IMG/VR virus record: IMGVR_UViG_3300043409_000868
Coordinates: 5,007-69,006 of that record
Reading direction: 5' to 3' (one strand)
Length of the DNA: 64,000 bases
Source of the DNA: a virus
Position numbers and translations under genes: made by a program. Numbering within the stretch: position 1 is the first letter of the stretch; each line of letters begins with the position of its first letter. The notes below the pieces were generated by a model, which ran no database searches, was not told the DNA's origin, and worked only from the letters and a program-made list of their open reading frames with translations. Positions 11,911 to 35,923 of this stretch are shown here, piece by piece.

Positions 11911-14900
11911 ATGAGTACTAAGAGTTGCGATATTTCTGATTTTATAAAAAACCTAACAGAACAATTAAATCCCGATGGAACTAGAAAATTTACAGATGAC
12001 CAAATTAAGGGAAAACTAAAAGTTGCTTACAAAAAGGGATATATTAGCCGTGCTCAAATTATCGCAGCCTCTGGCAAAGAAGATACTCTTATTTCAGAAA
12101 CTGAATTTAAAGAATTAGAAACTTTGACTGATTTACTCGTTAGTTCTAATAAACCATTGTTTGATGTCTTTTCTCCAGAACAGGCTAAACGTTTATTAGA
12201 GTTAACAAATAAAGCAAAAAATTCGGTTGGTTATGGTGAAGAAGGTAGATTAAATCAATCAAGACTTCAAGAAATTATTAATTTAGCATCAGAACGAACA
12301 CCAGAAACTTCAATTAGTATCTTAACTTTAGTTGATGAATCTATTCAAAGAGCTGAAAATAACGGAGATAAGAAAAGAGCAGCAGAACTTAGAGACTTAA
12401 AAGTTAGATTTCAAAAGATGAACGACTTGTCATCTAAGTTAAAGATTGATTGGAATGCTATTGTAAAGACAAACAAACAATCAGATAAACTAACAGCTGA
12501 ATATGCAATTGTTAGATCAATTTTAGATGTAGGTGATAGAGAGACAGCTGAAAAAAGAACTGTATTAAGTCAAAAAATACTTGCTGTAGTAGACGAACAA
12601 AAAACTATAATAAAAGATACTACAATATCCGAAGAAGAAAAGGTTAAGCCAGTAGCTAAATTAGAGGCAGAAAAACAAAACTTAGTTACACAACTAGAAG
12701 AAATCACATCTAAAAAGTTTGCAGTAAATAGAAAAAAATTAGAAAAAAGATTAAAGACAATAACCCATGAACTTAGGCGATTACAGGATAACGCTCCTAA
12801 TTCATTCTTAAATAAAATTTTAGTTACTGTAAGCGGAATGGACCCAGAGTTTGTTGTTACTAGTTTAAGAGAATTAAAAGAACGACAATTAAAAGTTGAA
12901 GACGATATTAAGTTAGTAGAGAAAGTTATTGAGCAGTATCCAACTGACAAAGAATTTTCTTTTCCAGAGTTAGAAAACTTAATTGGCGACGATATCTCTA
13001 CAACAAAATCAATTAAAAGTTATTTTTATGAGATTGATTTAGATGCAGATGGAAAACCAAGATTAGATTCATCTCTTAGGCCAATGAAAAAAAGAAAAGA
13101 GAAAATTACCTTTAGTGATATGAAGGCTATTGTTGACATTTGGAAAACTATTAAACGAAATAATTCATATGATTCTACAATTACAAATGTTGAAGCAAAT
13201 ATGATTAGAAACGCTTTATTAAGCGGAGATCAGAAATTAGTTAGTGAAGTTGATCCAGCAGATCCTTTACCTATTTCTAGGACTAACGCAGAAAGAATAA
13301 CGTTAAAAGTTGGTAAACAATATGATCCTCGAAAACTAGAAGATAGGGTTTCTGCTATTAAAGATTTACATGTAGCTTTAAAACGATTAAGTTATATCTC
13401 TTCTTTAGCAAACAATTCAGGAGTTATTTCAAGTGGAATGTTAGTTGGAGTGTTAGGATCTAATGCACAAAGCCTTAGTCATAAATTTGATAGCGCATTA
13501 GCTGATGATTCTGAGTTAAGTAATCCTTATATTCCAGAAGGTGAAACAACAAATGAAGGTCGTAGAGCTGTGTTAAGAGGACAATTAACTGCTTTAGGTT
13601 ATTCTGATTCTGACATTAATGCTATGCCAGAAATGCGCAATGAATATCATGATGATTTTACTAAAATTCTGGCTTTTGATCTTGAATGGGAAAAAGGAAC
13701 AAACAATATTATTGCTATTTCAATAGTAGAATTACTTAATGGAGAACCTACTCCAGTAAACTCTAGGGTAATTTATTCTACCGCTGGAAAAGATAAAAAT
13801 TTTAGTAAGGAAGATGCAGAAGAATTTTTACAATTAATACATAGATATCAGAATGAAGGTTTTAAAGTAACTGGACATAATATTCTTGGATCAGACTCAG
13901 ACGTACAGAAATTAGTATCTGTTTCTAAGAATACTAAATTAGGAATGTCTATTGCACTGAGATCTCTTGATACTATGCTTTTAGCGTTTAGGAATGGAGA
14001 TAAAACGTCATTTAGTAGAAACTTTGGTCCATCTTTAGATAATTTAGCGAAAGCTTTTAAAGTAGGTAGTAAAGCTGGTACTGGTATTACAGGAGAATCT
14101 GCACATGGTGTTTGGAAAAGTGGAGATTACTCTAAGTTTGAGGAATATATTCAAGGTGATTCTATCTTAGCTGCTCGTATTCTTCAAGAAATGTCAAAGA
14201 ATGAAGGTAAAGATATTAAGGTAATGAATTCTAGGAAACAAGAACAAACACTGCATATACACGAAACAGTTCCTATTTGGTACGATACAGGAAAACCAGA
14301 AATGGGAAGAAACCAAAGATATACTGGAGTAAATGTATTATATGATATTCAATCTTTTAATAACCTAAGAGAAAATGCTCAACAAACCATTTATGATAAT
14401 ACCTTATACGATATAGCTAAAGTTAGAAATGTAATGACTAATATGGTTTTAGGTTTAATGCGTACTAACAATGCTAAAGATATTGATACTTTATTTTCGG
14501 CAATTAATGCTTCTGAAACAGATGCATTAGAGAATATTGATATGGTAATGTCTATTTCAAGAGTTAATCACGAAGCTTATTTACCTATTCTACAACAAGT
14601 TAGAAATAGTAATGGTAATAGATTCTTATCCAACGCAGCTAGAGAAGAAAATGGAGATATATCATATACATACTGTGATAATGGTACAGATTATGAAAAC
14701 CAAGTTATTGAAGAAATATTTAATACACTAAGTGCATATAATAGAAAAGCTGAAAAAACTATTACACGCTTTGCTGAATTAGTTGGGTTTAGGGGAATAG
14801 GTGAAACAGAAAACTTAATAGATTTTACAAAGGCTTTATTTAGTTTTTCTGCACAAAAATTTAATAATAAAGAGAGCATAAAAATACAAGACTTTGGTAA

Positions 14901-17900
14901 TGGTATTTTTGACTATGTTTCAGCAGTTCAACTGGGTCGTGGTTTTTCACAAATTATGCTTGGTCATGTTGAGGAAGGTTTAACTTTATCTCAAAATATT
15001 AAAACTCCTGTAGAAGAAATTGATCGTATACGAGAAGTAGCAAAAATTGATGGAGAAGAGATTGCAGGAGAAGATAGTAGAAACTTAGTAGAAAAAAGAG
15101 AATATTTACCTATTACAAGACAAAACGTTAGTTACTTTGCTCCACTTAGTATGTACGAACAAGAACGAGCTTATAATGATTTTGCCTTACGAGAGAGATT
15201 TCATTATATCTTAAATAAAGATATTACAGATGATGATGTTAGAGAGTTTGAAAAATGGGTAGGTACAAACAAGATTGTTGAATTTAAAAACAACATTAAG
15301 GATAGACTTCGTTTACATAAACTCTTTAGAGAGGGATTAATAAAAACAGTAAATGATGTAAAACTCTTTATGTATGATTTAGGAATAGAATCTTTTACGG
15401 GATATGATCCTATTAGTATTATTCTTAATAAGGATTTAAGTAAAGATGAAAAGGTTAAGTTATTCTATGATGGAGCTTCTTTTGCTAAAAATGAGTTAGC
15501 AACTTATATGAAGGAGTTAGATAGAACTAGATTAGAACAAGGAAGAGTTCAGAATTATAATATTCTAATGATTGCCAATAATAGAGATATTTATAATAGA
15601 ATCCCTACATTAGAAGAAGTTAAAGAAATGTCACTAGAGGTTGCATTAGATCTTCCTCAAATGGTTGCTACTTGGGTACATGATTCACACAATACTAGAC
15701 CAGAAGAGAGACGACATCTAGAAGAAAAGAATTATTGGGAGATGTCGGAATTATCTTCTGGTGGGCCAACAGGAGCTGCTCTTTTAAGTGGCATTTATCC
15801 ACAAATAGCTTGGTACATGAGTCATCCTGAAATAACAAGTGATCCTAAAGCTATGGAACAATTAGTTTATAAATCATTGCAAAATGGTATAGCTGGTGGA
15901 TCTAGGTTTTCTAGGTCTTCTTACTGGGACGATGTCCAAAGTGGACATCACCATATTGTGGCTCTTCAATGGGCTTATTTTCCTGATGAATCTCATGTTC
16001 AAGAGGGTGGTTTATTACAGATTCTTGATAACATTAAGACTGGAAATGTAGGTCGTAGTGATCTAAAAGACTACTACAATGAAACCGCAAATGAGTTTGC
16101 TAAAGCTTTAGGTGAATTAACAAATGCTGCTATTATGAGAGGTGGATCTGACTCTAGTACAAATCCTGAATTAGCTCAAATTGAAAGAATAAATAATGCT
16201 TTAAATAGGAGCAATGAATCAAGAGAATTCTTTAAGGGTGCCGTTATTCCCGTATTTTATAGTGCAGGATTTAATGGTGTTCTTAAAGGATTAAGAGATA
16301 AACAAAAGAAAATGCCTGGAGATCCTATTTCAGAATTAAATGATGAAGACATTCAATTTATTGCTGCAAAACTTACTGTAACTGGAGCAATTGGTACTGG
16401 ACGATTAATAGATACAATTCTTGGCATGGATACAGAAAAGTCTAGAGAAATAATTAAGTTATTTGGAGAAGGAACAAAAAGATTAACTTTTGATATGAGA
16501 AAAAGATGGATTGATATAATGAATTTAGATAAGGATCTTAAGAATAATTATATTTCTGAAGATGCTGCTAGAGCAGGAATTAATCTTAGACTTCGTATGA
16601 TTGCTGAACTAACATTACCAGCTAGATACGAAACAACTAGATTTGAAAGAGAAGAGTGGATTAAAGATAGAGTAAAATTACTTACTGAAAAATGGAATAA
16701 AAGAATTGAAAACGGAATGGAAATTATTAGAAAGTCTGGTAAAAAAGGAGTAGAAGTCGGAAGTCAATCAGAAAGAGACTTTCATGTTGCATTAGCAGGA
16801 AATGAATCAGCCTTTAAAACACAAATGTCATTAATGGCAATTAATCAAATGCAGAATTCTGGTCTTAAGTTAAATTCTTCTGATAGAGATATATTAGAAG
16901 CATCAGTTAGAACTGGTAGATATATTGCTGAAGGTGATTTAATGTATGCTAATAATGTAGTATTTACTACAGTTGGTTTTGGTAGTGGTAGTGCTCGCGC
17001 TCAATATGTTGGTAATTATTTAACAAACTTACATGGCTCAAGACTAAGCAAAGGAAACCGAACAGTCTATAACGATGATCATTCTATTAACTGGGATGAG
17101 ACAATTAAAAATAGTGCTTGGAGTCTAGAAGGAAATCCACTAACTGGTAAACCAAGAAATGAAGCTATTGCAGAAATAGATAAACTAGCAGTAAAACATT
17201 ATCTTTTACAGGTTGCTACTGATTATGCCCCAACTATGATTGGTTATAATCAAGAGAATGAAAGTAGATCTAATTTCTTTAATCAATGGAAAAATAGAAC
17301 AAAACAAGAACGTGAATATGACTACATGGGTCGTATGAACGATGTTGCAAAACTAAAAACACTATATGAAACAGAAGATCCAACAACAAAAAGAACATTA
17401 ACAGACGCAGAAATTGAACTATCTATTGCTAGTAACTCAACTCCAATTAATAAGAGAATTGGAACTAGAATTTTAGCTGGTGATTTTGCGTCTCCCCATG
17501 ACGAAACTGTAATGTCTATGTCAGATGCCAAGGGATTGGCTGCGTTTAGACCAAGATTGGCTGATGATGCTTTTGACGATAGAATAGTTCATGGTTTATA
17601 CTCTATTTACCAAGGAACAAAACAATTAAATCTTGGAGTAGGTCGATTTAGATCTGCTGTGCAAAAACTAAAAGAAGACAATACAACTCCTGAATCTATT
17701 CTGGATATGGAAAACTCAAGAGCAACTCAATACGACCCTGAAGAACTAGGAGTATACTTTCCTGAAATAGACTCTTCTTTAACCCAAGAAATATTTGGAC
17801 AAAGACCAACATTTAATCAAAAACTAAATAAAATGAGATTTTTATTAGATACTTTTGGTATGCAGCACGGTTTACAAGAATTAGTTAAAGCAAAAGAATA

Positions 17901-20900
17901 TACTCGTTTGTATCAAATTTATAAAGTTAGACAGGCAATGAAAAAGTTTGCATTACTTCTTGGTGAAAGTAAAGATTCTAAATGGGATATGAGATTCTTA
18001 CATAGACACTTTATTCAACAAGTATTTAGAATAACAAAAGCCCAAAGAGATGCAAGTAATTCTTCTAGAAATCTCTTAAATTTCCTTAAGTCAATTGGAA
18101 TTGATCCTAGTCTATTTAAAGATGGATTTGGTAATAATCTTCACTGGATTGATACTCTTGGCATACTTGCTGACATGGGTATTGAAGAACTTAGTACTCT
18201 TAAGTTTGGAATGTCTCCAGTAGAAATGTTAACAACATCAACAACAGAAACTCCAAGTATATTAAAAAGTGGATCTACTATTGTTATGCCTAATGTAATT
18301 CAGGGTGAAGATGTTTCAGTTATTATTCAGAGTATATGGGCAGATGTAAGGGTCCAACAGAAAGCTACTGAATATGCTGATAGATTAGTTAGTGAAGGTA
18401 CTTTAAGTTCATATGAAAAAGATCCAACAGGAAAATATATTTTACTTGCTGCTGTACCTAAGGATATTCAAGTACAGATTGCACAAACTATATTTACAGA
18501 TGATGAATTGATTATGGATGTTGCAGAAAATCTTGGTTTACATGTAACTTTAGAGTTTGTAGCTGGCGAAAATATGCTTAGATTACAAGGATCTAAACTA
18601 CATGCTTCATCTTTGGGAGCATATGTTGTTCCACGAAGAGGACTAGGTTTTCCTTCTGCTAATCGAACAGTACTTGGTGAAAGAGATGTTAAAACCTATT
18701 TAACTCCAGAGGCTGTTAAATCAATTCTTTATTCTGCAAAAAATGCTAAGTTTTTTAGTAGATTAGAGACTGCTGTACAAGTAGATAAATACTTGGGGCA
18801 AACAACTATTGTTGATAGATTACGACAACAACAATATGGAGAATATCTTGATAGACATTTAGAGCAGATAGCCGAAGAAACCGAACTTTTAGAGGCTCTT
18901 GAAGAAGGTAAACTACAGAAATTAAGAACTGAAAGAATGAGGGATGAATTAGGTGTTGAATTAAATTTATATGACGCTGAAGCATACTTTACCTCAGAAG
19001 ATGAAATAACTGGATTAACCCCATTTAAAAATGCTATGTCATTGGATATGAGAATTGCTTATGAAAGAGCAAAACAATATCCACTTTTACAAGATGAAGC
19101 TGAGACATTAAGGAAATTAACAACCAAAGTAGAACATGAAAAACTTTTTTTACAAATTTCCTTTATAACTTTTCTTAGAAATAACGTAAGTGGAAAAGAA
19201 CTAACAGATCCTCAATTACGAATGCTTGTAAATGAGCATTTTGGATCAGAACTCACTAATTCAGAGTTTGAAAGCCTTATGAAAAACGCTAATGAAATTA
19301 CTGAAATTATAGATAGAATTAATTTCTCTCCATTTAAAGGTAAAAATCCATATTTAGCACAAGCTGTAAAACATAGACAAATGCTGTTATATGATCCTGA
19401 TGTTTTAAATGTAACTAGTGGATATAGAAGTCAAAATGATATTATTAATTTTATGGAAGAATTTGATATTCCAAGTAAGGACTATGAAATAGCAGCACAA
19501 GCAGTTATTGAAGCATACGCAATTACTAATCGTTCTGTTGGTAACGCAGAAACATATTTAACTATTCCAAGCAGTGATCTAGTTAATATAGCATCTGATC
19601 CAGATGAATTTGCTAGGGTATTCCCTAGTGGAAGTCACATTAATTCTCAATTATCAAAATTAGTGAAAGATGGGGTTATTGACGGAGAAACTGAAATATT
19701 TTATCGCCTCTTAATTGGTAAAATTTTAAAACATAATCCAAACTTAGCAAAATTCTTATCTATTGAATGTGATGACTTAAGTACTTCTAGATCTGCAGAA
19801 GCTGTTAAAGAAGATGATAGATTTATAATAAAACTTAATACAAAGTTATTAAAAAATATGGGTAGAATTGATCAGACAAGGGTATTTGCACATGAGATTT
19901 CCCATATTGCTCGTTTAGCTTTTATTGCCGATAACAGTCCTGAATGGAGAAAAGTAGAGTCTTTATTTAGATCTAAAAAGGGAAGAGACAGTATTCCTAC
20001 TATGTTACTTATTATGAATAATAATAGTAAATATGAAGGGTTTGATCAAGATGTAAAATACTATACTGAAAACGTAGAAGAATTTCTTGCTCAATGGGGA
20101 TCGTGGATTTTATTAGAAAAAGTATTTAATAATCCAGCTGTAATGCAAGCAATACAATCCAGGAGTACGGCAGCTTTATTTGCAAGTAATGCTTATAAAT
20201 CTTCATTTTATAGGATGCGAGATGAAGTTCTTAGTATTACAACTGGTTTAGCTGAAGTAGACGAAGGTGTATTATCTAGTATTTTAGATATAACAGAGAG
20301 TATGTTTGGATTTACTTCTTCTGTAGAAAGAACAATTCACGTTACAAATGCAAATCAAAAACTAGGGATGATAAGTAGTTTTGATACGCCATTATCTAGT
20401 AGAGAAGGAGAAGTAGATAAACTATCTAGCTTACAAAACAAAGTAAATGTTTCTGGCATTTCTTCTTTGACTGTAATTGAGCAGGCAGAATATAAAATTT
20501 TAACAAATAAATATAGCGTTTCTCCATTAAAGAATTTAGATATTGTAACATATAAAAAACTTAGAAGCACACGAGAATCTAGACAAGGAACTTCATTAGC
20601 TCTTCCGCATGTAAGGTCTAGTTCAGGTAAATTTCTAAGTACACTTGATGATTTAAAAACTCCAGAAAAATTAGAATTGGCTAATACTATAATTCTTGAG
20701 TCTATTAAACGGGGTGGAAAATTAGCTAGAAATTTAGGAACTGTTGGTGGATTAGCCCGAGAACAATCGGAAAAAATGTTTGGTAAAAAAGCTACTGAGA
20801 TGTTTTTAGTTAGTAGATATTTATTAGGAACATGGGATTTAACTCAAGCAAGTAAAACACATCAAAGCCAGAATATTGTAGTAGCTTCTTTAATGCACAT

Positions 20901-23900
20901 TATTGGTGAAACATTTAATAATACTGAGAATCAATATCAACAACAAACTGGTGCTCGTAGTATTCGAGAAAACAGAGCTTATTCTCAACAATGGATTGAC
21001 AGAGTTTCTTATGAAGTTGGTCAATTAAGAATTGAAACTACAGATGATGAGTTTAAAACTTTATTAAAATATGCACAAGAAGTTGCAACAGGAATGGGTC
21101 CAGTAGATCCACCAGGTATCTCAGCTGAGAAAATAGATCAAGCTAAAAAAGTAGGTAAAACCACTTTAAAAAATTCTAGACAACTTAGATTCTTTATTTA
21201 CGGAAAACTTGCAAAACTTTTTGAAGAAATTCCAGTTCAATTAGATAAATCATTATTTGGATCTAGGCAAATTAGTTCAGATCCCAATAAACAATTAGGG
21301 TTTGAAAAAAATAGACAAGATCTAATAGATGCAACTGCTAAACAAATTATAGAAAATGTAGAAACAGGTTCAATAAACGGTGCTTTGTTTTATGCAAGTG
21401 GTTTAGGACCTAAAATTAATAGATATTATGGTTATGATGATAAAACAGATTCAATTGATCCAGAATTTATTACGGAAATGAAACGAGTTCAAAATTCAAA
21501 TCCAGCTACGTTTAGGATGATTTCAGAAATTGCTGTAAGACAACTAGCTAATAGAGATAATTTAACTGAGGCTGAAGCATATAGAAAATTAAATCAATCA
21601 ATAAGTGATGGTTCTTTTTTAATTAATGGTTCTCCAACAATGCATAAAATTTGGCATGAATCTGCTTTAAAATTCTATAGTTTAATTAGTACCTATAAAC
21701 ATATTAGTCATGTAAATGATGGTATCAATAAAATAGCTAAATCTAACACCTTTAGTACTATATCGTTGAAGTATCTTGGAGAATGGGCAGATGAAATAAA
21801 CATAACTATAAATTCAAATGATGAAATAAGAACAGCTGGTCCTTTATTTGTACCTAATGGAAATCAATTCCTTCCAGATGGTGTTTCTAGTGTTACTAAA
21901 AAATCTACAATGTTATTAACAGGACAGAAACAAACTAAAATAGCAGATATCATGGCTGGTTTATTTTGGTCTGAAATGGGAGAACAACCAGATTACCTTA
22001 GGACAAATGAAATTATTACTGGTGCGCATATGAGACAAAACGAAGATATCAGTAAATTCTTACAGAATAGACTAGATAGTGTACTTGCTGATGTAGAACG
22101 TTCCAAGGGTTTTAGAGCTGCTTCTCGTATTGCTATTCAAGATATTACTGGAATAACTGGTTATGATATATACGATCTTATTTCTTTATTTAAACAAATA
22201 AGTGATAACTTTGAACCAAAAGAAAGAACAGAACTTTTAGATTCTCTAAAGGTAATTGAGCAAAAACTTCAGATTGAGCAAGGAATGAGTGCTAGGGGAT
22301 TAAACGATGAGGACGATCTTTACACTAATTTCTTCCTTAAGTGGGGACCTGATGTTACTAGATTAGCCTATGGTTCTAACTTGAATACGGCATCTTTAGT
22401 TATGGAAGGTGCTCTTGGTGCGTTAATTACAACTCGTTATGGAGGTAATCCAGTAACATTCTTTACAGATTTATTTGGTAGTGTCTTTGGAAACTTACCT
22501 AAAGCACTCTTTGGAGGAAGTACATACAACCCAAGAGGAGTAGCTGTAAATATGATGCGTGGTTTAGAACACTCTACAAGAAACGCTAGAGAAGTTGCAA
22601 CTCAACAAACAAACTATGTAGCTGATGGTGCGTCTAGATGGGAAAGATATAAGGCAATGATGTCAAGAGTTAACAATTCTATATTTAATGGAATTGCTGA
22701 AGGAATGACAAATCAAGCGCAAAACATTATAATTGATCACCTTAATAATGGAAATTTGTTTAAGATCAGGGATATGTTAGGCAAAGAGACGTTAAATAAT
22801 ATGGATGAATTAAAGGCAGCTTTAAATAAATACAATATTATTGGTATTCTACCCCATATGGTATTTGAATTAAAACAAGCTGGTATCTTTGAACCAAAAA
22901 TTTTAGAAGCTTATCAGTATATGTTAAATAACGTAAAGAGTAAGAAAATAAATAATGGTACTTTAGATTTTATTGCTGCAAACGAATGGAATGAAACCCA
23001 AAAATGGAACATACTACTCACTCATAAATTAGGGTTTGATAGAAATACAGCTTATCGTGCTGTAGCTAGTATGTATGAAGCTACAAAAAACTTTAGAAAT
23101 ATTGTATTAGTTGAGAATAATCCTTGGGATAGTAATACACATAGTGGTGGATTACGATTCTTAATGTCATTTTATAGACAATACCCTAATTTATTCTTTT
23201 CTCAAAAAGTAATGAGATTGGCTAATAAGGTAGACACAGGTACGTTTGCTGCTATGCTTATTAGCACTACAATCTTAGATTTACTATATAATGCTCTTTT
23301 ATTAGTTGCTCTTGGTGCTATACCCCTAGCAGCTCTGTATCCATTCTCAGATGAGTTTTTATTTAAGAAGAATCCATTAGCTGCTACTAGATTAATTCTT
23401 GGAAGAAATCCAATTTTTGGTCTTACTGGTAACTTAATTTTTGGAGCTTTGACTACTGGCTATCAGAATTATTTATCTATTAACAATGCTTATGCTAGGA
23501 AAAATAGATTTCAAGCACTAAAAAAATCAATTAAAACAGGGATTGATCAAACTGATTTAAGTATTGTTCCACAGCAAGCTGCTGAAACTTTAATTAAAGA
23601 TCCTATAACTATGATTATTCTTGGTTTAATTGCTGGTGGGAATATAAATGAAAAAGAAACATATGATATGCAGAATGCTGCTATAAATACTGGATCTAGA
23701 GTACTTCCAATTTTTGGTGAAATGGTTGTTAGAATTGGAGCTACAAGGGTACTAATAGGAGAAAACCCAAATCTCAAGAAACGTAGTAAAGTATCTCCAG
23801 GTATCAAACCTAATACTAAACCTAAGGGTCCAATTCAAGGATTACAAGCACCAAAGATTTCGTCTGCTAGTACTAATCCACTAACACCACCCGATTCATT

Positions 23901-24116: not shown

Positions 24117-24151
24117 CAGCCAATCCCTCATGCTTTCGTAAGAGAGCATGA

Positions 24152-24197: not shown

Positions 24198-24211
24198 ACA
24201 GGAGATATGCC

Positions 24212-24328
24212 ATGACTTGGCTTATCTGTATCATCGGTGGACTCCTTATTGGAGTCTTATGTAGTCTCGCCTCTATCTTCAGCCGCTGGGCTGAAGAAGC
24301 CAGGAAGGCAGGTGCATACAAGAGATAA
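24212..24328 (+). CDS. Small membrane peptide (38 aa)
   Basis: AGGAG SD. MTWLICIIGGLLIGVLCSLASIFSRWAEEARKAGAYKR. Confidence 0.6.
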   Translation: MTWLICIIGGLLIGVLCSLASIFSRWAEEARKAGAYKR

Positions 24329-24360
24329 CACTCCGCCCCTTTGCTACGGCAAGGGGGCGG

Positions 24361-24406
24361 GGATGTTAGCTGTTGCTAACAAACGTACCTATGCGTTACA
24401 TAGGAT
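24361..24406 (+). repeat. 46-nt intergenic direct repeat A, copy 2
   Basis: One mismatch to copy 1. Confidence 0.9.
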
Positions 24407-24432
24407 TTTATAGTCTGAAAGGACTAGACAGT

Positions 24433-24681
24433 ATGAGCAAGACGAAGAAGAAGCTGATGATGAATATCATCGTCTGGTGGGTTATCCTGGTAGGAGGAAC
24501 ATGCGTTCTTTCGTACTTGACCTTTGTCATTGGGAAGTACGTGATGTGTGAGGCAACTCACCCAGCGGAGTGGATGTTGGTTGGGCTGTGTGTTGGTCTT
24601 CCGATCATGGGTGTGTACTTTCTTATTTGCATTGCAGATGAGATCAAGTCAGACATGATTCGTTTCCGCTTTATGAAGTAA
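24433..24681 (+). CDS. Small 2-TM membrane protein
   Basis: AAGGA SD and two hydrophobic helices. Confidence 0.65.
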   Translation: MSKTKKKLMMNIIVWWVILVGGTCVLSYLTFVIGKYVMCEATHPAEWMLVGLCVGLPIMGVYFLICIADEIKSDMIRFRFMK

Positions 24682-24734
24682 GTAGCTAAGAGGCTACCCA
24701 AGCTCCCTAGGGAAACCTAGGGAGCGAAGGGCTG
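24682..24734 (+). repeat. 53-nt intergenic direct repeat B, copy 1 (GAAA-tetraloop hairpin)
   Basis: GTAGCTAAGAGGCTACCCAAGCTCCCTAGGGAAACCTAGGGAGCGAAGGGCTG, repeated at 24967-25019. Confidence 0.9.
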
Positions 24735-24791
24735 TATCTTAACAGCACATGTGTACCTATGCACTACATAGGATATTTCAAGGAGATCCAA

Positions 24792-24974
24792 ATGGATCAG
24801 CCTAAGAAAACCACAACAAGGTATATTGTTGTGGACAACGTGTTTGGTGTGGATCTTGTTATCCATACCAATTTGAAAGAGGCCAACATTGATGCTGGCC
24901 TTTATCCTCAAACCCATATTGTTGTAGAAGTTACAACAGAATGGGAGAACGTTAAGACAATCTCTCGTAGCTAA
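24792..24974 (+). CDS. Small hypothetical early protein
   Basis: AAGGAG SD, flanked by the two repeat B copies. Confidence 0.6.
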   Translation: MDQPKKTTTRYIVVDNVFGVDLVIHTNLKEANIDAGLYPQTHIVVEVTTEWENVKTISRS

Positions 24975-25019
24975 GAAGCTACCCAAGCTCCCTAGGGAAA
25001 CCTAGGAAGCGAAGGGCTG
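24967..25019 (+). repeat. 53-nt intergenic direct repeat B, copy 2
   Basis: Two mismatches to copy 1. Confidence 0.9.
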
Positions 25020-25104
25020 CGTCGTAGCAGCAAACCCCTAAGGCATTGGGGGTGCCCTATTGAGGGCCTACTCATAACAGTGGCATAGCCACAAGGAGAG
25101 TTCA

Positions 25105-26928
25105 ATGCCCGTTTCTCTTGCTGGTCTTCCGACCAGCGAAAAGGTTAGTAAGTTTGTCCATGACTTGCTTGTCAAGTCTGGCGAACTGTCTAACCAGCCA
25201 TCCTTTGAGATGGCGATCAAGGTGGTGTGGGAGGACATCGTTGTCCCTGCACTGGACGCGGGTGACTTGGAAGTGATCCAAGTCGGCGACGAGAAGTGGA
25301 TTCGGAATACTTCGTCTAAAATGACGAAGGACAACCGAATCTGTTTGTCTCCGAGAACAATGCGGCACAACTGGGGCAGCAGCAAGATGAATCTTGAGTT
25401 GCCTCCGCGATACGCAGAAGAGCAGGAGACTCGCGCCAGTGTTCGCCTGACGATTAATCGCCCTATGTTGGCGATCATTCAGAAGGCGGCATTGGTTCCA
25501 GAGGTCGTCAAGAAGATCGGACAAGATCCTGCCGTTAATTTGGCAACGATGTTTGTGCGCAACGCAGACAAGGGTGGACAACCATTCTTTTACGTTGCAC
25601 CCTTCTTTGACAGCGTTGGACGCGAGTATGGGGAGGGTCTTTTGAGTTACACAGGTAACCAAATGGTCCGAAATCTCATTGAGTTTTACGACTCAGTGGA
25701 TTATAACCCCATCTTCGTGAAGGAGTTCATTGAACCCCTGGTCTACGAGTCCAGCGGCGTGAAGTTTGAGAACTTCCGTGAAGTGCTGGATCGGTGGGAG
25801 GACATCCTCCTCGACAAGTGGGCGTTCAAGAATCCGTGGCACACGCTTCGTATGGCGGTCTTCTACAACGAAGTCGTTACTCAGGGGTACTCTGGTGCCC
25901 ATCTTGAGTACGACTTTCGTACCAGTGGTCCGTTGATGCTTGGGCTTCTCTCGCGCGACCGAAACATGATGGCCGACACCAATATGTTCGGTGTCGATAA
26001 CCGTGATTGCCGCAACACTGTGGCAAGCTTGGTTGTTGTTCCTGCTGCTCTCAAGCAGTGGGAAGATCGCCTCAAGTCCAAGGATGTTGCCAAGCCTTTC
26101 GTGACTCAGACCACATACGGTCAAGGTCCGAAGGGTGCGGTGGCTGGCCTCTTCTGGAAGGATGCCAAGAAGGCTCCTGGGATGTGGCTCAACGGACTGG
26201 GAATGCCGCAAGAGGCATTTTTGGATGCTGTTCTCAAGCAGCAGCCAAACCTCTTCAACCCAGACTGGATCGAAATCATCCAATCTTTGGGTTGGATGAG
26301 TGCGTATTCAGCTTTCCACGACCTGTCTTCCTCTTACTACAATTCCTTCTGGGGTGCTTACAAGCACCTCAAGGGGTATTGTTTGAAGGTAGAGAAGGCA
26401 GGAATGGCCCAGATGGCAAGCACGGGCTGCAAGCCAGAGTTCACCAACATTGCTGGGTGGCGTTATTGCCACCACAAGTGGGAAGTGGAAGCAGGGGGAA
26501 AGGTGGTTCGTTTGCGTTATAACGGACCAGGTTGCTGGAAGGACTTTCCACGGGGGTTTGAAGTGTCAATCGGCAGCATGATTGACACGGCAGACCTCTA
26601 CAGTTTGGTTGTTAGGATGACACACCAAGCCGATGCGTGGATTCGCAACGATTCTCACTTCGCTATCCGCAAGGACCAGATGCGGTACTGGGGGCGATAC
26701 GTCGGACACATGGCAGTGCATGACGCACTCATCGTGCCAGTACGGCAGGGGGTGGGTTTCCACAAGGTGGTGAGGCCAGTCCTCCACCGCTTCGTGGAGA
26801 ATTACGTCCCGAGTGTGGACAAGTTCCTGAAGGACAATGGTCAGGAGCCGCCAACGGCCCTGAACAAGTCTCAGCAGGAACTCGTTCACTGGAGCATCGC
26901 CAACAACAAGAGGTGGCTCAACCTCTAA
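25105..26928 (+). CDS. Second, minimal T7/N4-type single-subunit RNA polymerase (607 aa)
   Basis: FDSVGREY (DxxGR), motif A YDFRTSG, motif B KDVAKPFVTQTTYG, THQADA and motif C AVHDAL, all in T7 order. AAGGAG SD. Confidence 0.8.
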   Translation: MPVSLAGLPTSEKVSKFVHDLLVKSGELSNQPSFEMAIKVVWEDIVVPALDAGDLEVIQVGDEKWIRNTSSKMTKDNRICLSPRTMRHNWGSSKMNLELPPRYAEEQETRASVRLTINRPMLAIIQKAALVPEVVKKIGQDPAVNLATMFVRNADKGGQPFFYVAPFFDSVGREYGEGLLSYTGNQMVRNLIEFYDSVDYNPIFVKEFIEPLVYESSGVKFENFREVLDRWEDILLDKWAFKNPWHTLRMAVFYNEVVTQGYSGAHLEYDFRTSGPLMLGLLSRDRNMMADTNMFGVDNRDCRNTVASLVVVPAALKQWEDRLKSKDVAKPFVTQTTYGQGPKGAVAGLFWKDAKKAPGMWLNGLGMPQEAFLDAVLKQQPNLFNPDWIEIIQSLGWMSAYSAFHDLSSSYYNSFWGAYKHLKGYCLKVEKAGMAQMASTGCKPEFTNIAGWRYCHHKWEVEAGGKVVRLRYNGPGCWKDFPRGFEVSIGSMIDTADLYSLVVRMTHQADAWIRNDSHFAIRKDQMRYWGRYVGHMAVHDALIVPVRQGVGFHKVVRPVLHRFVENYVPSVDKFLKDNGQEPPTALNKSQQELVHWSIANNKRWLNL

Positions 26929-26950
26929 CCTTGATCGCCATCACAACCTC

Positions 26951-26980
26951 GCACTCCCTAGGGGAAACCTTAGGGAGTGC
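26951..26980 (+). other. Strong hairpin (terminator or RNase III-like site)
   Basis: GCACTCCCTAGGG-GAAA-CCTTAGGGAGTGC, related to the repeat B core. No U-tract. Confidence 0.55.
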
Positions 26981-27067
26981 CTTGGGCATTTTGCCCACCT
27001 CGTCTACAGGAGTTCTCTGTAGAAGATACCTGTTTGTCTTAAAAACAGGCTATTAGGAGCATGTCAC

Positions 27068-27475
27068 ATGAGTGACATCAACGTTGGTTCGCGTCAGGTC
27101 ATCCGCAACTCCGAAGGCAAGGTTGTCGGGACTTTCCTCCCGTCAAAGAAACACTTCGGCAAGTTTGCGGTTACCACGTTCCTTCCGTCTGGCGAAGCGC
27201 ACACCACAATCAAGGGAGTATCTGATTGGGTCATGATCACGGAGCGCAACCCAGACTGGACATTCTCTCCGTCTTACTACACCGTTGCGTGTGGTAAGGA
27301 GGGTGATGAGGTGGTGATTGAACTGACGCACAACAGTGTTCCAGAGTGGAACACTACGTTTCGCGTGCCACACGCAATGAACTGGCAGGATTCGTTCCTG
27401 ATCTCGTTCCGCATGGGCATGATGTCTCTGGGTCGTGAGACGCACATCGGCAACTTTGTCGATCTCACGGTCTGA
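27068..27475 (+). CDS. Hypothetical early protein (135 aa)
   Basis: AGGAG SD, GC-rich codon usage like the adjacent RNAP. Confidence 0.7.
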   Translation: MSDINVGSRQVIRNSEGKVVGTFLPSKKHFGKFAVTTFLPSGEAHTTIKGVSDWVMITERNPDWTFSPSYYTVACGKEGDEVVIELTHNSVPEWNTTFRVPHAMNWQDSFLISFRMGMMSLGRETHIGNFVDLTV

Positions 27476-27638
27476 GAGACAAGTAAAACAAGTACGGAGC
27501 AACCCCCCTTGGGCAACCAAGGGGGCCTCTCCCTATTTGTTCTAGGTAATATGAGTTATTATATACTCTAGACTATTTGTAACCATAGACTATGGAGTAG
27601 TTATAGACTATAGGCATATCATTATACCCAGGTCAGTA

Positions 27639-27682
27639 CCATACCATACCCATACCATACCCATACCATACCCATACCATAC
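27639..27682. repeat. (CCATACCATAC)x4 tandem repeat
   Basis: Four exact 11-nt units in a non-coding region. Confidence 0.95.
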
Positions 27683-27820
27683 CCCTACCCAGCTTATAGA
27701 ATGCCGTAGCGGTCATCCTAGGGCCATTTCCTGCCATTCTACAAGGTATATCCAGCAGCTATCTATAAAAAATGCGTATAACTGTGGAATGCCCTGCTAA
27801 TTTCCCATATTATACTTATT

Positions 27821-27847
27821 TATCGTCCCCTTCGGGGACCGTGGTGG
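27821..27847 (+). promoter_or_regulatory. Candidate phage promoter, hairpin motif copy 1
   Basis: TATCGTCCCC-TTC-GGGGACCGTGGTGG. Confidence 0.7.
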
Positions 27848-27928
27848 AAATTGAGTAGTACTCAAGCCCAGATATAATATAGATCAGAGCGTAAACTATC
27901 TATAGATATATCTGAATTAGGAGACAAC

Positions 27929-28192
27929 ATGTCTGATCCCAATACGCCTGACATCTCCGTTGATCCCATCGCAGCTGTTTTTCCTGTTGATCCCGTTGCT
28001 ACAATGCTTCGGACTGGCCAAATTCTCATCACTCTCAAAGGTGAGTCAAATTGGCCTGGGAATTACAAGAACCTGAATGACCGTCAAATCATGAATTTGA
28101 TCAAGATGGTTCAAGAAGGTCGAGCTAACAAGCCAGAGACGGTCAAGGCTATCCTGCGGGAAGCGTTGGATCGTCAACTCATCTCGCCATGA
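27929..28192 (+). CDS. Hypothetical protein (87 aa)
   Basis: AGGAG SD, located between motif copies 1 and 2. Confidence 0.7.
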   Translation: MSDPNTPDISVDPIAAVFPVDPVATMLRTGQILITLKGESNWPGNYKNLNDRQIMNLIKMVQEGRANKPETVKAILREALDRQLISP

Positions 28193-28193
28193 G

Positions 28194-28220
28194 TATCGTC
28201 CCCTAAGGGGACCGTGGTGG
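28194..28220 (+). promoter_or_regulatory. Candidate phage promoter, hairpin motif copy 2
   Basis: TATCGTCCCC-TAA-GGGGACCGTGGTGG. Confidence 0.7.
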
Positions 28221-28250
28221 TCTATAGGGAAACCTATAGATCATCTTTCA

Positions 28251-28336
28251 GGTCTATCAAGAGCCTATACATAAATCTTGGTGCAAACATCAACTAGGTA
28301 GCCAATCTGGAGGCTAAGTAGTGCTCTTAATGATGT
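28251..28336 (+). ncRNA. Hatchet-like ribozyme candidate
   Basis: UC|U, P1 TATCAAGA/TCTTGGTG, CAA linker, P2 ACATCA/TGATGT, P3 ACTA/TAGT, P4 TAGCC/GGCTA and 3' TAGTGC..TTAA. Lacks the G-rich strand expected between P2 and P3. Confidence 0.35.
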
Positions 28337-30954: not shown

Positions 30955-31155
30955 ATGATGAGGAACGAGATGAATATGGAAATCAACCGTCTGAAGTCGA
31001 GACTGATCCTCAATACGGATGCCTCGACCGCTGGTCGAATTAATGAGTTGTTTGAGCGAGGAATCATAGCTGATTTCTCTGAAGATGGATGGGTACTTTA
31101 CCATAAAGAGTGGTATCCATTCAACACTTTCCTTGAAAGGATTAAGTATGTCTAG
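30955..31155 (+). CDS. Hypothetical protein
   Basis: ORF overlapping the next start. Confidence 0.55.
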   Translation: MMRNEMNMEINRLKSRLILNTDASTAGRINELFERGIIADFSEDGWVLYHKEWYPFNTFLERIKYV

Positions 31156-32110
31156 TGTGTTTAATTTTGTTGGTGCTACAGTCGAGGGTCTTTCTCTCGA
31201 AAAGGCAACCAGTCTAGCTGAGATGAATTGGAGCGTAAGTAAGCGTCCTATTTATGTCTCAGATATTTCTGAAGGAAAGAATAGCAATGAACTATTCTCT
31301 ACGAGTAAGTTCTTTGCTACTACTAGGGATGATACAAATCAAATCCTTGGTATCGTTGGACCTGATTATCAGGTTGTTCAAAACAGCGAGCTTGCCTATA
31401 TGTGTGAGCGTCTTCAGGGATCTGATGTAAAGATTGAGACTGCTGGTATCCTTGATAACGGTCGCCGAGTCTTTATTCAGATGCGTGGAAATCCATTTGA
31501 TGTTGGTCCTAAGCACGATACCAACATCCCTTATACCTTGTTCACTAATGGACATGATGGACAATGGCCCCTTAGTTCGTTGCCTACTTCTTATCGAGTG
31601 ATCTGTCAGAATACTCTGAACATGGCACTACAGAATGGTAGCAAGACTAATATGATTATCAGTATCCGACATACTGGTAACATGCAAGATCGTCTTGAGT
31701 CTATGTTCCAATCAATTCAGAATTGGAAGGATCGTACTGTTACTTTCCAGAATCAAGTAGAACTACTTGCTCGTAAGGAAGTTAATACCGAGCTTGTCCA
31801 AAGCTTCTGGACTAATCTCTATGTAAATTTGTTTGGAGATATCCATGAAAATCCTACTACAGAGGAACATTTGGACAATAACAAATCCGCAATGTCAACA
31901 ATGACTACGTGGAGTAATACATTTGACTCCGAGGTTAAGTTGAGTGGTGCTAACATGTGGACTGCAGCTAATGCAGTTACTTCATGGTTGGATCACAACC
32001 AAATCTATCGTGGTGTAAAGAAGAATGAAAACAGGTTCAATGATACGCTCTTTGGCACTGGTGCCAAGGAGAAGGTTCGTACTATGAACTATGCTCTGAC
32101 TGCTATCTAA
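31148..32110 (+). CDS. DUF932 / LGT_TIGR03299-family protein
   Basis: LGIVGPDYQVVQN, IETAGILDNGRRVF, TNGHDG, RVICQNTL, IRHT motifs. Confidence 0.85.
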   Translation: MSSVFNFVGATVEGLSLEKATSLAEMNWSVSKRPIYVSDISEGKNSNELFSTSKFFATTRDDTNQILGIVGPDYQVVQNSELAYMCERLQGSDVKIETAGILDNGRRVFIQMRGNPFDVGPKHDTNIPYTLFTNGHDGQWPLSSLPTSYRVICQNTLNMALQNGSKTNMIISIRHTGNMQDRLESMFQSIQNWKDRTVTFQNQVELLARKEVNTELVQSFWTNLYVNLFGDIHENPTTEEHLDNNKSAMSTMTTWSNTFDSEVKLSGANMWTAANAVTSWLDHNQIYRGVKKNENRFNDTLFGTGAKEKVRTMNYALTAI

Positions 32111-33446: not shown

Positions 33447-33470
33447 TATCGTCCCCTTCGGGGACCATTG
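33447..33470 (+). promoter_or_regulatory. Candidate phage promoter, hairpin motif copy 3 (directly upstream of the main RNAP)
   Basis: TATCGTCCCC-TTC-GGGGACCATTG. Confidence 0.7.
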
Positions 33471-33487
33471 TGACACAAAGGAGAACA

Positions 33488-35923
33488 ATGCTAGAATCTT
33501 GGCATAAATTAAGTGTGGAAGAAAAGTCTCGTAGAACAACAATGCAAAAGATCTACGAGGAAGAGTTGCTTGAAAATGGTGTTGAAAAATATTGGAAAGA
33601 GTATGGTAGGTCACCTGATGAAGGTAAGCCAGAACAACTGCTACTTGAATCAGCTGTAATACATCTCACTCCTTATTACCAAAAATGGATTGATGAATGT
33701 TGTAGTAATCGTAAGTCACCTGATTGGCTAGCACCTTTACTTAGTATTGGTGCAGCTAAGATGGCAGATATTACTCTTCGATCAATGATGAGATTGTTTC
33801 TAACAAGAAATACAATCCAAAGTTTTGATGATACAATGGGTATCCCAGCTAATGCTCCTGTTGCTCAACAAGTAGCAAAGCTTATCTCTGAGGATGTTGT
33901 ATCTATTGTTGCTTATCAACAAGCAAAGAAACGATTCTCTGAAGATTGGCGTAAGCAATCTAAGTTCATTAAGAACTGGACTGTTAAGCGGTGCAAAGCA
34001 TTTACATCTAAAGTTGCTAAGATCCCTAAGCTAAGGCCTAAGGAGAAAGAAGACTTTGGTCACAACATGCTTAGAGTTGCCCTCTCTAGTGATATCCTCA
34101 CTAGTAGGATTCATTGGAATGGTAAAAATAAAAAGTCATTACTAGTATCTTTCTCTCCTTGGATCTTATGTGAAATCCAAAAGAGACATGAGCTACTAGA
34201 GACAGCTTGCCTTGTTTACAGGCCAATGATCTCACCACCCATCCCACATACAACTAAAGAAGATGGTGGGTTTCTCAGCCCCTGGGTGCGTAAGAAGATG
34301 ATCAAGAGATATCATCCTGTTGGAGCAGATCCAAAGGAGTGGGACTCAAGACCATCCCCTATGGTTCTTAAAGGTCTTAATGCTTTAATGGAAACAGAGT
34401 GGTCAGTTAACACTCAAGTCTACCAAGTCATGAAGACTATGTTTGAGAATGATTATAAGGCTGCTAACATTCCTGCATACACATTCAGAGACTATGCTTT
34501 CTCTAGGGAGTATCCCATTGATGGGACCAAAGAAGAGAAAGCTAAGTGGATGCAAGAATCTAATGAAGCATGGGGCGAGTGGTATAAGGAAGAACAATCA
34601 CGATCTAGAATGATCGTTAGATTAGAGTTGGCAAGAAAGATGATTCAATGGAACTTCTTTTATATGCCATACACCCTTGACTTTAGAGGACGTACCTATT
34701 CGGTATGTGAACTTCTATCTCCTCAAGGTATTGACTTTGATCGAGGACTTGTTCACTTTGGAATGCCACGTAAACAAACTAAAGAAGGTTTGTATTGGTT
34801 GTATGTCCATGTAGCAAATCTATTTGATCAAGACAAGAAACCATTTGACCACCGTGTTAAATGGGTTAAAGATAATATGGATCTCTTCCTCCGTATTGCT
34901 GATGATCCATATGCTAATAAAGAATGGATTGATCCAAGTAAGAAGAAGAATAAATCATTTCAAAGATTGGCTGCTATCTTTGAGGTATGCAGGACAGATG
35001 GACTAACACAACTCCCTGTTCAAATGGATGGTGCAAATAATGGTGGTCAACATTGGGCTGCTATTATGCGTAATAAGAAACTTGGTATCCTAACTAATCT
35101 TATTAAAACAGAAAAGCCACAAGATCTCTATCAGTATGTAGCTGATGCTGCTACTGAGTTTATGAAAGAGAATCCAACTAATAGATGGTATCCTGCATTT
35201 CTAGAGTATTGGGATAATAGACTTCCTCGTAGTGTAACTAAGCGTTCTACTATGTGTGATGCTTATGGTCTTACATTCTATGGTATGCAGAAATATGTCA
35301 AGCAAGAGGGTCATGTAGATTGGGTAAGTAAAGAACAAAGAGGTGGAGCTGTAGTAGAACTAGCTCGCGCTATCCAAGTTGGCCTAGGTGAGACAATGCA
35401 ATCGCCTAACCTAGGCAAAGTTTGGCTACGAGAAGTAGCTACTATTCTTAACTCTTTAAACAAACCTTTTGTATGGACTACACCTAGTGGCTTTGAGGTA
35501 CATCATGTTTATAATCAAATACTTGAACGAGTCAGTTATGCTGAGTTGTTTAATCGTCAGCAACTTGTTTTCAGCACTGTTACGGAAGACCTTAATGGTA
35601 AAGCACAATATCTTGCAATTTCTCCAAACTATATCCATTCGCTAGATGCTGCTCATATGTTTATGACAATTTCTAGGATGTTAGATACAGGTATGAGTGC
35701 CTTTTCATTTGTCCATGATTCTTATGGAACATATGCACCTGACATTCCTGTCATGCATAAGCTATTGCGAGAAGAATTCATCAAGATTCATAAGGAGAAT
35801 CAACTTGAAAACCTCAAAAAAGAAATTGAAAAAAGATATGGAATCTATCTCCCCGAAGTCCCCACCCAAGAAGAAGGTTTTGACCTCCAAGAAGTCGTTG
35901 AATCAGAATACTTCTTCGCTTAA
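33488..35923 (+). CDS. T7-like single-subunit DNA-directed RNA polymerase
   Basis: DFRGR, motif A MDGANNGGQH, motif B RSVTKRSTMCDAYG, PNYIHSLDAAH, motif C VHDSY. AAGGAG SD before ATG 33488. Confidence 0.97.
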   Translation: MLESWHKLSVEEKSRRTTMQKIYEEELLENGVEKYWKEYGRSPDEGKPEQLLLESAVIHLTPYYQKWIDECCSNRKSPDWLAPLLSIGAAKMADITLRSMMRLFLTRNTIQSFDDTMGIPANAPVAQQVAKLISEDVVSIVAYQQAKKRFSEDWRKQSKFIKNWTVKRCKAFTSKVAKIPKLRPKEKEDFGHNMLRVALSSDILTSRIHWNGKNKKSLLVSFSPWILCEIQKRHELLETACLVYRPMISPPIPHTTKEDGGFLSPWVRKKMIKRYHPVGADPKEWDSRPSPMVLKGLNALMETEWSVNTQVYQVMKTMFENDYKAANIPAYTFRDYAFSREYPIDGTKEEKAKWMQESNEAWGEWYKEEQSRSRMIVRLELARKMIQWNFFYMPYTLDFRGRTYSVCELLSPQGIDFDRGLVHFGMPRKQTKEGLYWLYVHVANLFDQDKKPFDHRVKWVKDNMDLFLRIADDPYANKEWIDPSKKKNKSFQRLAAIFEVCRTDGLTQLPVQMDGANNGGQHWAAIMRNKKLGILTNLIKTEKPQDLYQYVADAATEFMKENPTNRWYPAFLEYWDNRLPRSVTKRSTMCDAYGLTFYGMQKYVKQEGHVDWVSKEQRGGAVVELARAIQVGLGETMQSPNLGKVWLREVATILNSLNKPFVWTTPSGFEVHHVYNQILERVSYAELFNRQQLVFSTVTEDLNGKAQYLAISPNYIHSLDAAHMFMTISRMLDTGMSAFSFVHDSYGTYAPDIPVMHKLLREEFIKIHKENQLENLKKEIEKRYGIYLPEVPTQEEGFDLQEVVESEYFFA

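Follow-up and report, generated by a model that had tools for sequence, protein, structure and literature searches.

Two single-subunit RNA polymerases and a probable third in the genome of an uncultured, enlarged T7-like podophage

The canonical and the minimal RNA polymerase

The genome of an uncultured freshwater podophage (IMG/VR record IMGVR_UViG_3300043409_000868) was analyzed over a stretch of 64,000 nucleotides, hereafter called the window, which comprises bases 5007–69006 of the 69,006-bp virus record. The record has direct terminal repeats and a completeness rating of 100%. The plus strand carries all large open reading frames (ORFs) of the window, and three of these are the subject of this study: a gene for a giant protein of 3999 amino acids (aa) at 11911–23910, followed by the genes for a 607-aa protein at 25105–26928 and for an 817-aa protein at 33470–35923. 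A preliminary description of this DNA had assigned motifs of T7-type single-subunit RNA polymerases (ssRNAPs) to all three proteins and had proposed an N4-like transcription cascade in a phage with a T7-like backbone.

The 817-aa protein matched Pfam RNA_pol (PF00940) with an E value of 4.7e-82 (276.6 bits against a cut-off of 22) and, over its full length, PHROG 414 (E = 3.6e-150). Its closest cultured relative is the RNA polymerase (RNAP) of LUZ100, with 28% identity. Based on these family matches we regard it as certain that this protein is a full-size canonical T7-type RNAP, as had been claimed. Its gene starts with a GTG at position 33470, and the start noted previously, 33488, is an internal ATG.

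Among the genes of a GC-rich early block, the 607-aa gene is the first large one. Because the gene region has a GC content of 51–57% and contains several antisense ORFs, the reality of the ORF needed to be checked. Taken alone, the 607-aa sequence yielded no match in Pfam or PHROG, no meaningful match in the Protein Data Bank (PDB), and none in 50,697 phage records. A HMMER search against 1.84 billion representative sequences retrieved 23 relatives with E ≤ 1e-3 (13 with E ≤ 1e-30), nearly all of which are 575–607 aa long, and all 20 relatives that were aligned are single-chain proteins of 574–607 aa. Invariant in the 20-sequence alignment were R173 of the T/DxxGR motif, D270 and G275 of motif A, K330 and Y338 of motif B, and H539 and D540 of motif C. 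In the 607-aa protein these four motifs occur in the canonical order and align to the motifs of T7 RNAP. Searched against the PDB, the family profile matched human mitochondrial RNAP (E = 1.2e-26) and T7 RNAP (E = 3.4e-22), and was collinear with both chains of N4 RNAPII (6DT7; E = 1.5e-6 for chain A and 7e-7 for chain B). Pfam RNA_pol was reached individually by 9 of the 20 family members, but not by the sequence from the window. Comparison of the family with a six-sequence T7-type alignment using HHalign resulted in a probability of 99.8% (E = 1.5e-29, 459 columns) and mapped residues 93–605 to residues 306–882 of T7 RNAP, with only about 92 residues preceding the aligned part. Since the protein aligns to this portion of T7 RNAP, we are certain from the sequence comparisons that it represents a one-chain ssRNAP with a predicted thumb-palm-fingers core that lacks the N-terminal promoter-binding domain of T7 RNAP. 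The thumb and fingers are shortened relative to T7. The earlier claim of a minimal second RNAP with all motifs in only 607 aa was confirmed at the family level only, by the profile and HHalign matches and the invariant motifs.

The total size of the 607-aa enzyme is similar to that of N4 RNAPII (PDB 6DT7; 269 + 404 aa), and both enzymes are without the N-terminal domain of T7 RNAP. They are also collinear, as residues 155–198 of the 607-aa RNAP correspond to the C-terminus of gp15 and residues 213–343 to the N-terminus of gp16. However, N4 RNAPII consists of two polypeptides that are split between the T/DxxGR motif and motif A, whereas the 607-aa RNAP is encoded by one uninterrupted ORF and belongs to a phage that is not N4-like. 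N4 RNAPII works on single-stranded templates and depends on gp1 and gp2 as cofactors. Moreover, its similarity to N4 RNAPII (E ~1e-6) is far weaker than that to T7 RNAP (E = 1.5e-29). The HHalign score between the 607-aa family and the family of the N4 virion RNAP (vRNAP) was 49. As judged from its sequence, the enzyme is a one-chain counterpart of N4 RNAPII in size and layout, while by score it is nearer to the T7 and mitochondrial enzymes.

The giant protein and its central module

The conservation of the central part of the giant protein (aa 1050–2100) was assessed using 18 sequences from two clades. Of the 1051 alignment columns 62 were invariant, including D1340, G1345, H1347, H1348, D1387, Y1389, R1438, K1442, Y1450, and G1453. 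The first four of these residues form a motif A-like element, D-x4-G-x-H-H (15928–15954, with the Asp codon at 15928), which follows the pattern D-x4-G-x-x-H of motif A in T7 RNAP. A fingers-like segment (aa 1385–1497; 16063–16401) includes D1387-x-Y1389 and a motif B-like element, R1438-x3-K1442-x7-Y1450-x2-G1453 (16222–16269). The spacing between motifs A and B is 102 aa in the giant, 94 aa in T7, and 111 aa in N4. Two additional groups of residues are invariant in all 18 sequences of the two clades. One is a His-Asp-Ser triplet at aa 1257–1259 (15679–15687), a motif C look-alike located upstream of motif A. The other comprises G1669, R1670, D1676, and R1696 (16915–17001), in which D1676 is a candidate for the motif C aspartate at the canonical position, in an atypical context.

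The best HHalign match of the 18-sequence profile aligned motif A of the giant to motif A of T7 RNAP (score 27.2, P = 0.065). In addition, aa 1382–1528 were aligned to residues 605–748 of the N4 mini-vRNAP, a match that covers motif B (score 35, P = 0.01), and motif B was also the element at which the giant and the 607-aa family were aligned. Local HHalign with a cropped profile was collinear through the GR, motif A, D-x-Y, and motif B elements, with scores of 30.6 for N4, 21.4 for T7, and 21.7 for the 607-aa family against 10.6–13.8 for reversed-profile nulls; since the crop was chosen from the motif hypothesis, these scores are not counted as independent evidence. Cropped profiles used in global mode gave nothing useful.

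Two template-free AlphaFold models, covering aa 1100–2000 and 1165–1800, were of poor overall quality (mean predicted local distance difference test, pLDDT, of 50.4 and 55.5, respectively), but both agreed on a better-predicted helical segment at aa ~1385–1497. In a structural search of 48,161 PDB representatives, residues 567–690 of T7 RNAP (3e2e_A), which belong to the fingers and contain motif B, ranked first for both models, and ssRNAPs held ranks 1–4 of the 48,161 chains for the second model. The structural match starts at aa 1386, equivalent to T7 residue 568, in agreement with the sequence alignment of D1387 to D569 of T7. In the ESM Atlas, the neighbors of aa 1150–1950 were RNA_pol and N4 vRNAP clusters (0.83–0.86), which the tool grades as a lead only, and no such neighbors were found for a control region (aa 2900–3700).

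Several results weigh against a polymerase in the giant protein. It matches no polymerase in Pfam, PHROG, or the PDB, in the latter case neither by sequence nor by family profile. The four Pfam families of N4 vRNAP (PF21769, PF21894, PF21624, and PF21867) were not found in the genome at E ≤ 10, while all four are carried by 120 of 120 N4 gp50 relatives among those listed. HHalign probabilities for the giant ranged from 0.3 to 4%. Furthermore, 24 reversed-profile controls scored 14–33, and two of them exceeded the real score of 30.4, whereas the T7 and N4 vRNAP families, which are true homologs, score 50 over 304 columns. With Foldseek, neither model matched a PDB entry at E ≤ 0.001, and the matches listed included no RNAP. 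The pLDDT was below 52 in the motif A region and 46–68 in motif B, and no palm beta-sheet was modeled. A T/DxxGR-like string at aa 1207–1212 (GR at 1211–1212) is invariant in the clade of the window but missing in the sister clade. Finally, no motif C could be assigned at the canonical place, as three candidates fail conservation, and the invariant His-Asp-Ser at aa 1257–1259 is in the wrong order and was not placed on motif C by any profile alignment. Weak but repeated HHalign matches (scores 22–25) put aa ~1690–1760, and the stretch from G1669 to R1696, on the T/DxxGR region of both T7 and N4.

The candidates for motif C that were rejected as not conserved are the His-Asp-Glu at aa ~1861, which the preliminary description had proposed, the Thr-Asp-Tyr at aa 1770–1772, and the Asp-Ala-Lys-Gly at 1872. 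The Asp-Asp at aa 1722–1723 is a weak candidate. A two-barrel RNAP of the crAss gp66 type was also rejected, because no column with the metal-binding motif DxDxD was present in at least 3 of 13 family members.

What had been claimed for the giant gene holds in part: the ORF and the motif A and B strings were verified, with key residues invariant in 18 of 18 sequences, but the sequence statistics do not rise above chance. The structural models were likewise divided, with the T7 fingers ranked first on the one hand and the negative Foldseek result and the missing palm beta-sheet on the other. The motif conservation and the models speak for motifs A and B and for a fold like the fingers of the T7 and N4 enzymes, and we consider that aa ~1200–1720 probably form a third, hyper-divergent ssRNAP-like module that is a true ssRNAP homolog. 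That this module is also catalytically active appears somewhat less probable than its homology. Its independent support consists of two items only, the partial structural match and the protein-language-model lead. Judged by its motifs, the module may be rearranged, or some of the motif assignments may be wrong.

The giant gene closes the late block as the last of four consecutive ORFs without family match (3293–23910), which encode proteins of 232, 1400, 1228, and 3999 aa. The 232-aa protein (3293–3991), encoded by the first gene after the terminase, is a candidate small internal or ejection protein, based on its position only. The 1400-aa protein (4003–8205), which has one hydrophobic segment (aa 961–979), is a candidate ejection protein analogous to T7 gp14/gp15 or N4 gp52/gp51. 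The 1228-aa protein (8221–11907), another candidate ejection protein, contains Ala/Pro/Glu-rich periodic repeats of 9–21 nucleotides (nt) toward its C-terminus (10736–11791). None of these three proteins matched a PHROG. The four proteins contain 0, 1, 1, and 3 cysteines, respectively, corresponding to 0.08% in the giant as compared to 1–2.6% in the cytoplasmic enzymes of the phage. The cysteine depletion of N4 vRNAP has been pointed out as suiting passage through the tail and periplasm (PMC3821669), and the ejection operon of N4-like phages is described as encoding three proteins analogous to T7 gp14, gp15, and gp16, the third of which is the vRNAP (PMC13434306). Because the giant is encoded after the terminase and two very large proteins, is depleted in cysteine, and takes the place of the third N4-like ejection protein, we infer by analogy that it is a virion protein that would be packaged and ejected.

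The family of the giant is small and consists of 16 homologous clusters (4000–4107 aa) plus three sister-clade sequences of ~3950 aa, which share 26% identity over 1832 columns (E = 6e-103). Other parts of the protein show traces of further domains. Motif strings of a DEDD-type 3'-5' exonuclease were found in the translation at about aa 585–760 (13666–14190); the match is not significant (Pfam DNA_pol_B_exo2, E = 0.12, sub-threshold), and the homolog P0008 has a precomputed PF10108 match. An HExxH motif as in zincin-like metallopeptidases is located at aa 2636–2672 (19816–19926), with H, E, and H columns that are nearly invariant across the family, although the matches to Pfam SprT-like (E = 0.0075) and Peptidase_M48 (E = 0.055) are both below the cut-off. 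HtpX (3cqb) was matched with E = 0.13. A Kyte-Doolittle scan revealed a hydrophobic, membrane-span-like segment near the C-terminus (aa 3779–3814; 23245–23352). The ESM Atlas neighbors of aa 2900–3700 were unnamed viral clusters, a few of them with LPD39 (16% of members) or LPD38 (28%). Among the parts that recur in the class of polyvalent proteins, LPD domains, a processing peptidase of the zincin-like type, and a virion polymerase domain similar to that of N4 have been described (Iyer et al. 2017, PMC5512222). The giant resembles the proteins so described in being a giant multi-domain protein with an HExxH motif and in having LPD38 or LPD39 on a minority of its ESM neighbors. It differs from them in that no such domain reaches the curated threshold and in its far more divergent polymerase-like module. 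By analogy, the giant fits this class, which includes the N4-like virion polymerases.

Conservation of the gene order and genome setting

The order giant, ~600-aa RNAP, and ~810-aa RNAP is kept in two further genomes. Both belong to the sister clade, namely G008 (67 kb, terminal repeats, 100% complete) and G006 (62 kb, 91%), and encode a giant of ~3950 aa, an RNAP of 586–596 aa located 0.9–1.6 kb downstream of it, and an RNAP of ~810 aa another 6–7 kb further. Fragments from both clades are consistent with this order. In the clade of the window, the giant gene is followed by the 607-aa homolog on the 33.8-kb fragment G001, and G002 breaks off within the 607-aa gene that follows the giant. G005, which comes from the metagenome of G002, starts within the 607-aa gene and has an 818-aa T7-type RNAP downstream. 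In the sister clade, G009 contains both RNAPs and G007 the giant and the minimal RNAP at the contig end. G003 and G004 stop just past the giant and are uninformative on the trio. PF00940 was matched in four of four sister-clade records, and the sister-clade minimal RNAPs are just 16–21% identical to that of the window. Among cultured phages there was no match to the 607-aa protein or to the central region of the giant (tblastn, 50,697 phage records), and no full-length match to the sister-clade minimal RNAP. The trio was not found in described phages within the phage collections and literature searched, and the "second RNA polymerase" of PMC8386662 belongs to a different and unrelated Klebsiella phage. 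Within this scope, the earlier statement that the combination is not known from described phages is supported.

Since its portal and RNAP are just 26–31% identical to those of cultured Autographiviridae, the sequence data place the phage on a deep branch within the T7 supergroup, of which it is an enlarged representative. The proposed T7-like backbone is substantiated by the portal (~30% identity to Autographiviridae portals), the T7-type RNAP, the primase-helicase, and the DNA polymerase. According to the PHROG and Pfam scans, the large subunit of the terminase (1620–3281) is followed by the four family-less ORFs, the GC-rich block, which harbors the 607-aa gene and small early ORFs (24182–24986 and 27068–27475), ThyX, the 817-aa RNAP, and a metallophosphoesterase. 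Further downstream are four tRNAs and the genes for the primase-helicase, the DNA polymerase, the ribonucleotide reductase, the portal, the tail fibers, the scaffold, and the major capsid protein. In functional terms, the genome would run from the GC-rich early block through genes for nucleotide metabolism, transcription, and replication to the structural genes, the terminase, and the four cysteine-poor proteins that end with the giant.

The phage shares with the T7-like phages (Autographiviridae) the T7-type RNAP, primase-helicase, family-A DNA polymerase, portal, scaffold, major capsid protein, and the location of all genes on one strand. In contrast to those phages, which have genomes of ~37–46 kb, one RNAP, and the ejection proteins gp14, gp15, and gp16, it has a genome of 69 kb, an additional RNAP of 607 aa encoded ahead of the main one, an ejection block after the terminase totaling ~6860 aa, and a GC-rich early block. 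Between the early block and ThyX lies a gene for a 341-aa protein (31085–32110) that matched PHROG 1221, a family of unknown function (E = 1.8e-45). The 389-aa tail fiber contains collagen-like Gly-X-Y repeats (53397–54025). The repeat families D11, D15, and D16 are shared by the starts and ends of two adjacent ORFs of 471 aa (57103–58518) and 390 aa (58526–59698), which have no PHROG match and are likely paralogous structural genes, as judged from their sequences. Near-identical DNA is present in freshwater metagenomes, with 0.99 of the sampled words found in one run, and 0.93 of the sampled words in a freshwater-sediment run from a different study matched the window.

The block that starts right after the giant gene (24.0–27.5 kb) has a GC content of 48–57% as opposed to 31–39% elsewhere. 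The same jump occurs in G001 (52–60% vs. 33–40%) and G008 (50–55% vs. 36–41%), so that the early block with the minimal RNAP is 12–20 percentage points GC-richer in three genomes from two clades (window 24000–27500; L006 8401–12600; L029 9001–13000). The four tRNAs of the phage, Ile-TAT (38649–38723), Arg-TCT (39537–39610), Leu-TAA (41120–41203), and Lys-TTT (41206–41278), all read A/T-rich codons (AUA, AGA, UUA, and AAA). The early genes may be tuned to a host of higher GC content before the phage tRNAs are made.

The early block and its surroundings also contain several repeated elements. Between the giant and the 607-aa genes (24152–25032), stacked-hairpin repeats (families D5 and D7), of which one of 46 nt occurs three times and one of 66 nt twice, separate tiny ORFs. 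By their sequence, these repeats are candidate early promoters or RNA elements. No strong sigma-70-like site was detected on the plus strand in 23900–25100. Another hairpin, GTCCCC-N3-GGGGAC, with a 6-bp stem and a 3-nt loop, occurs in four copies on the plus strand at 27825, 28198, 33451, and 36329 (to 36343), as compared to 0 copies expected from 100 shuffles. Its copy at 33451 abuts the start of the 817-aa RNAP gene. The hairpin was also found at matching places in the relatives G001 and G005 (L006 12689 and 13134; L007 2181 and 5146), but not in the sister-clade loci. N4 vRNAP uses small hairpin promoters. Single-stranded hairpin promoters that are extruded by supercoiling have been described (PMC13434306). 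By this analogy the hairpin elements would fit the proposed cascade, but a role as terminators or in RNA processing is just as conceivable. A tandem 11-nt repeat (ATACCCATACC-like, about 4–6 copies) closely follows the early ORFs, at 27624–27689. In a lake-water metatranscriptome run, a 1072-letter contig from a 90–95% identical relative covers the ORF-poor region 27568–28300 (word depth ~60), although DNA may occur in RNA libraries. The same run contains smaller contigs over 23900–24229 and none over the 607-aa gene; such small-share contigs cannot show transcription or its absence.

Transcription strategy and alternative explanations

Two strategies are established for phages that rely on ssRNAPs: T7 encodes one RNAP and depends on the host for the start of transcription, whereas N4 injects an RNAP, uses a split RNAP for its middle genes, and employs the host RNAP late. 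The phage described here resembles N4 (Schitoviridae) in having a giant (3500–4000 aa), cysteine-poor virion protein that is encoded last among large ejection proteins, in encoding among its earliest genes a minimal ssRNAP that lacks the N-terminal domain of T7 RNAP, and in its hairpin-rich early DNA. It differs from N4 in its T7-like backbone and in the giant, which lacks all four vRNAP Pfam domains and significant sequence similarity to gp50. Moreover, the N4 program proceeds from the injected vRNAP gp50 through RNAPII (gp15 + gp16) to the host RNAP, whereas here a full-size T7-type RNAP of the phage itself would serve the last stage.

On balance, the explanation that we prefer, and hold to be rather probable as a whole, is that the phage possesses two bona fide RNAPs and a probable third in the giant, which act in an N4-like cascade on a T7-like chassis. 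The giant, in the position of T7 gp16, would be packaged and ejected together with the DNA like N4 gp50, and would transcribe the GC-rich left-end block with its many repeated hairpins, from which small early proteins and the minimal RNAP would be made. In the next step, the minimal RNAP would transcribe the middle genes including the 817-aa RNAP gene. As it is without a promoter-binding N-terminal domain, it probably works with early cofactors. Finally, the 817-aa RNAP would drive the late genes. We infer the order of these steps and the independence from the host RNAP from the gene order, the cysteine depletion, and the analogy to N4. A bolder version, in which the giant represents a new class of injected ssRNAP with a rearranged palm, the motif order C-A-B (with the His-Asp-Ser at aa 1257–1259 serving as the motif C hairpin), a fused DEDD exonuclease, and a self-processing peptidase, and in which the three-ssRNAP cascade never needs the host RNAP, is improbable in our view. 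The C-A-B order has a precedent in the RNA-dependent RNA polymerases of the birnavirus type.

It is unlikely, but deserves serious attention, that the phage has just two RNAPs. The giant would then be an ejection or polyvalent protein analogous to T7 gp16, extended by enzymatic and structural domains, that contains no polymerase, its motif-like strings and the helical match being due to chance, convergence, or a dead remnant. As in T7, the host RNAP would transcribe the early genes, among them the 607-aa RNAP gene, and the middle and late genes would be shared between the two RNAPs of the phage. Such a protein would be expected to behave as the giant does in lacking significant sequence or profile similarity to polymerases, the N4 vRNAP Pfam domains, a Foldseek match, a modeled palm, a T/DxxGR motif kept across the clades, and an assigned motif C. 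However, residues of the polymerase catalytic type would hardly be expected to stay invariant across two clades at 26% identity, ssRNAPs took ranks 1–4 of 48,161 chains for the second fold, and the RNA_pol signal in the ESM Atlas was specific to the region. The region in front of the 607-aa gene (23900–25100) also offers no strong sigma-70-like promoter on the plus strand for a host RNAP, with the reservation that the host is not identified.

Two further alternatives concern the nature of the enzymes. The least probable of all is that the central module of the giant represents a DNA polymerase of family A (Pol I-like) or some related nucleotidyl transferase. Coupled to the DEDD exonuclease that precedes it, the injected enzyme would serve in the repair, priming, or modification of the entering DNA instead of in transcription. 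Family-A DNA polymerases have the motif B pattern R-x3-K-x7-Y-G in common with the module, which is preceded at a distance of ~600 residues by the exonuclease-like motifs, in the order known from Pol I (E = 0.12; PF10108 on P0008). Yet motif A has the RNAP form D-x4-G-x-x-H and is aligned to that of T7 RNAP, RNAPs (T7, mitochondrial, and N4) provided the best structural matches, with no family-A DNA polymerase among the best 50 matches listed, and the phage already possesses its own DNA polymerase with an exonuclease. Very unlikely, too, is a specialized role of the 607-aa enzyme, such as the synthesis of replication primers or of the abundant structured non-coding RNAs from the 27.6–29 kb region. 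While the lack of a promoter-binding N-terminal domain, the adjoining ORF-poor and structure-rich region, and the RNA-library contig of the 90–95% identical relative over 27568–28300 (which is no proof of transcription) are compatible with this role, the phage has a primase-helicase, and in two clades the gene of the enzyme is the first of the large early genes and precedes that of the main RNAP. In addition, the closest analog in layout, N4 RNAPII, is described as the transcriptase of the middle genes (PMC13434306).

Taken together, the preliminary description was right with regard to two polymerases and is plausible for the third, and a cascade of the N4 kind in a T7-like phage is, by analogy, the best available reading. 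The GC-rich early block and the phage tRNAs for AT-rich codons provide a testable idea on the tuning of early genes to the host, and the one-chain RNAPs of ~600 aa are compact candidates for orthogonal transcription tools. The module of the giant, if active, would be among the most divergent members of its family and might reveal which elements of the right-hand fold can be lost or relocated. The lineage appears to merge the strategies of T7 and N4 on a T7-like chassis; if this is true, the injected-polymerase strategy would not be limited to Schitoviridae, and ssRNAPs would be able to diverge so far that present-day sequence profiles no longer recognize them.

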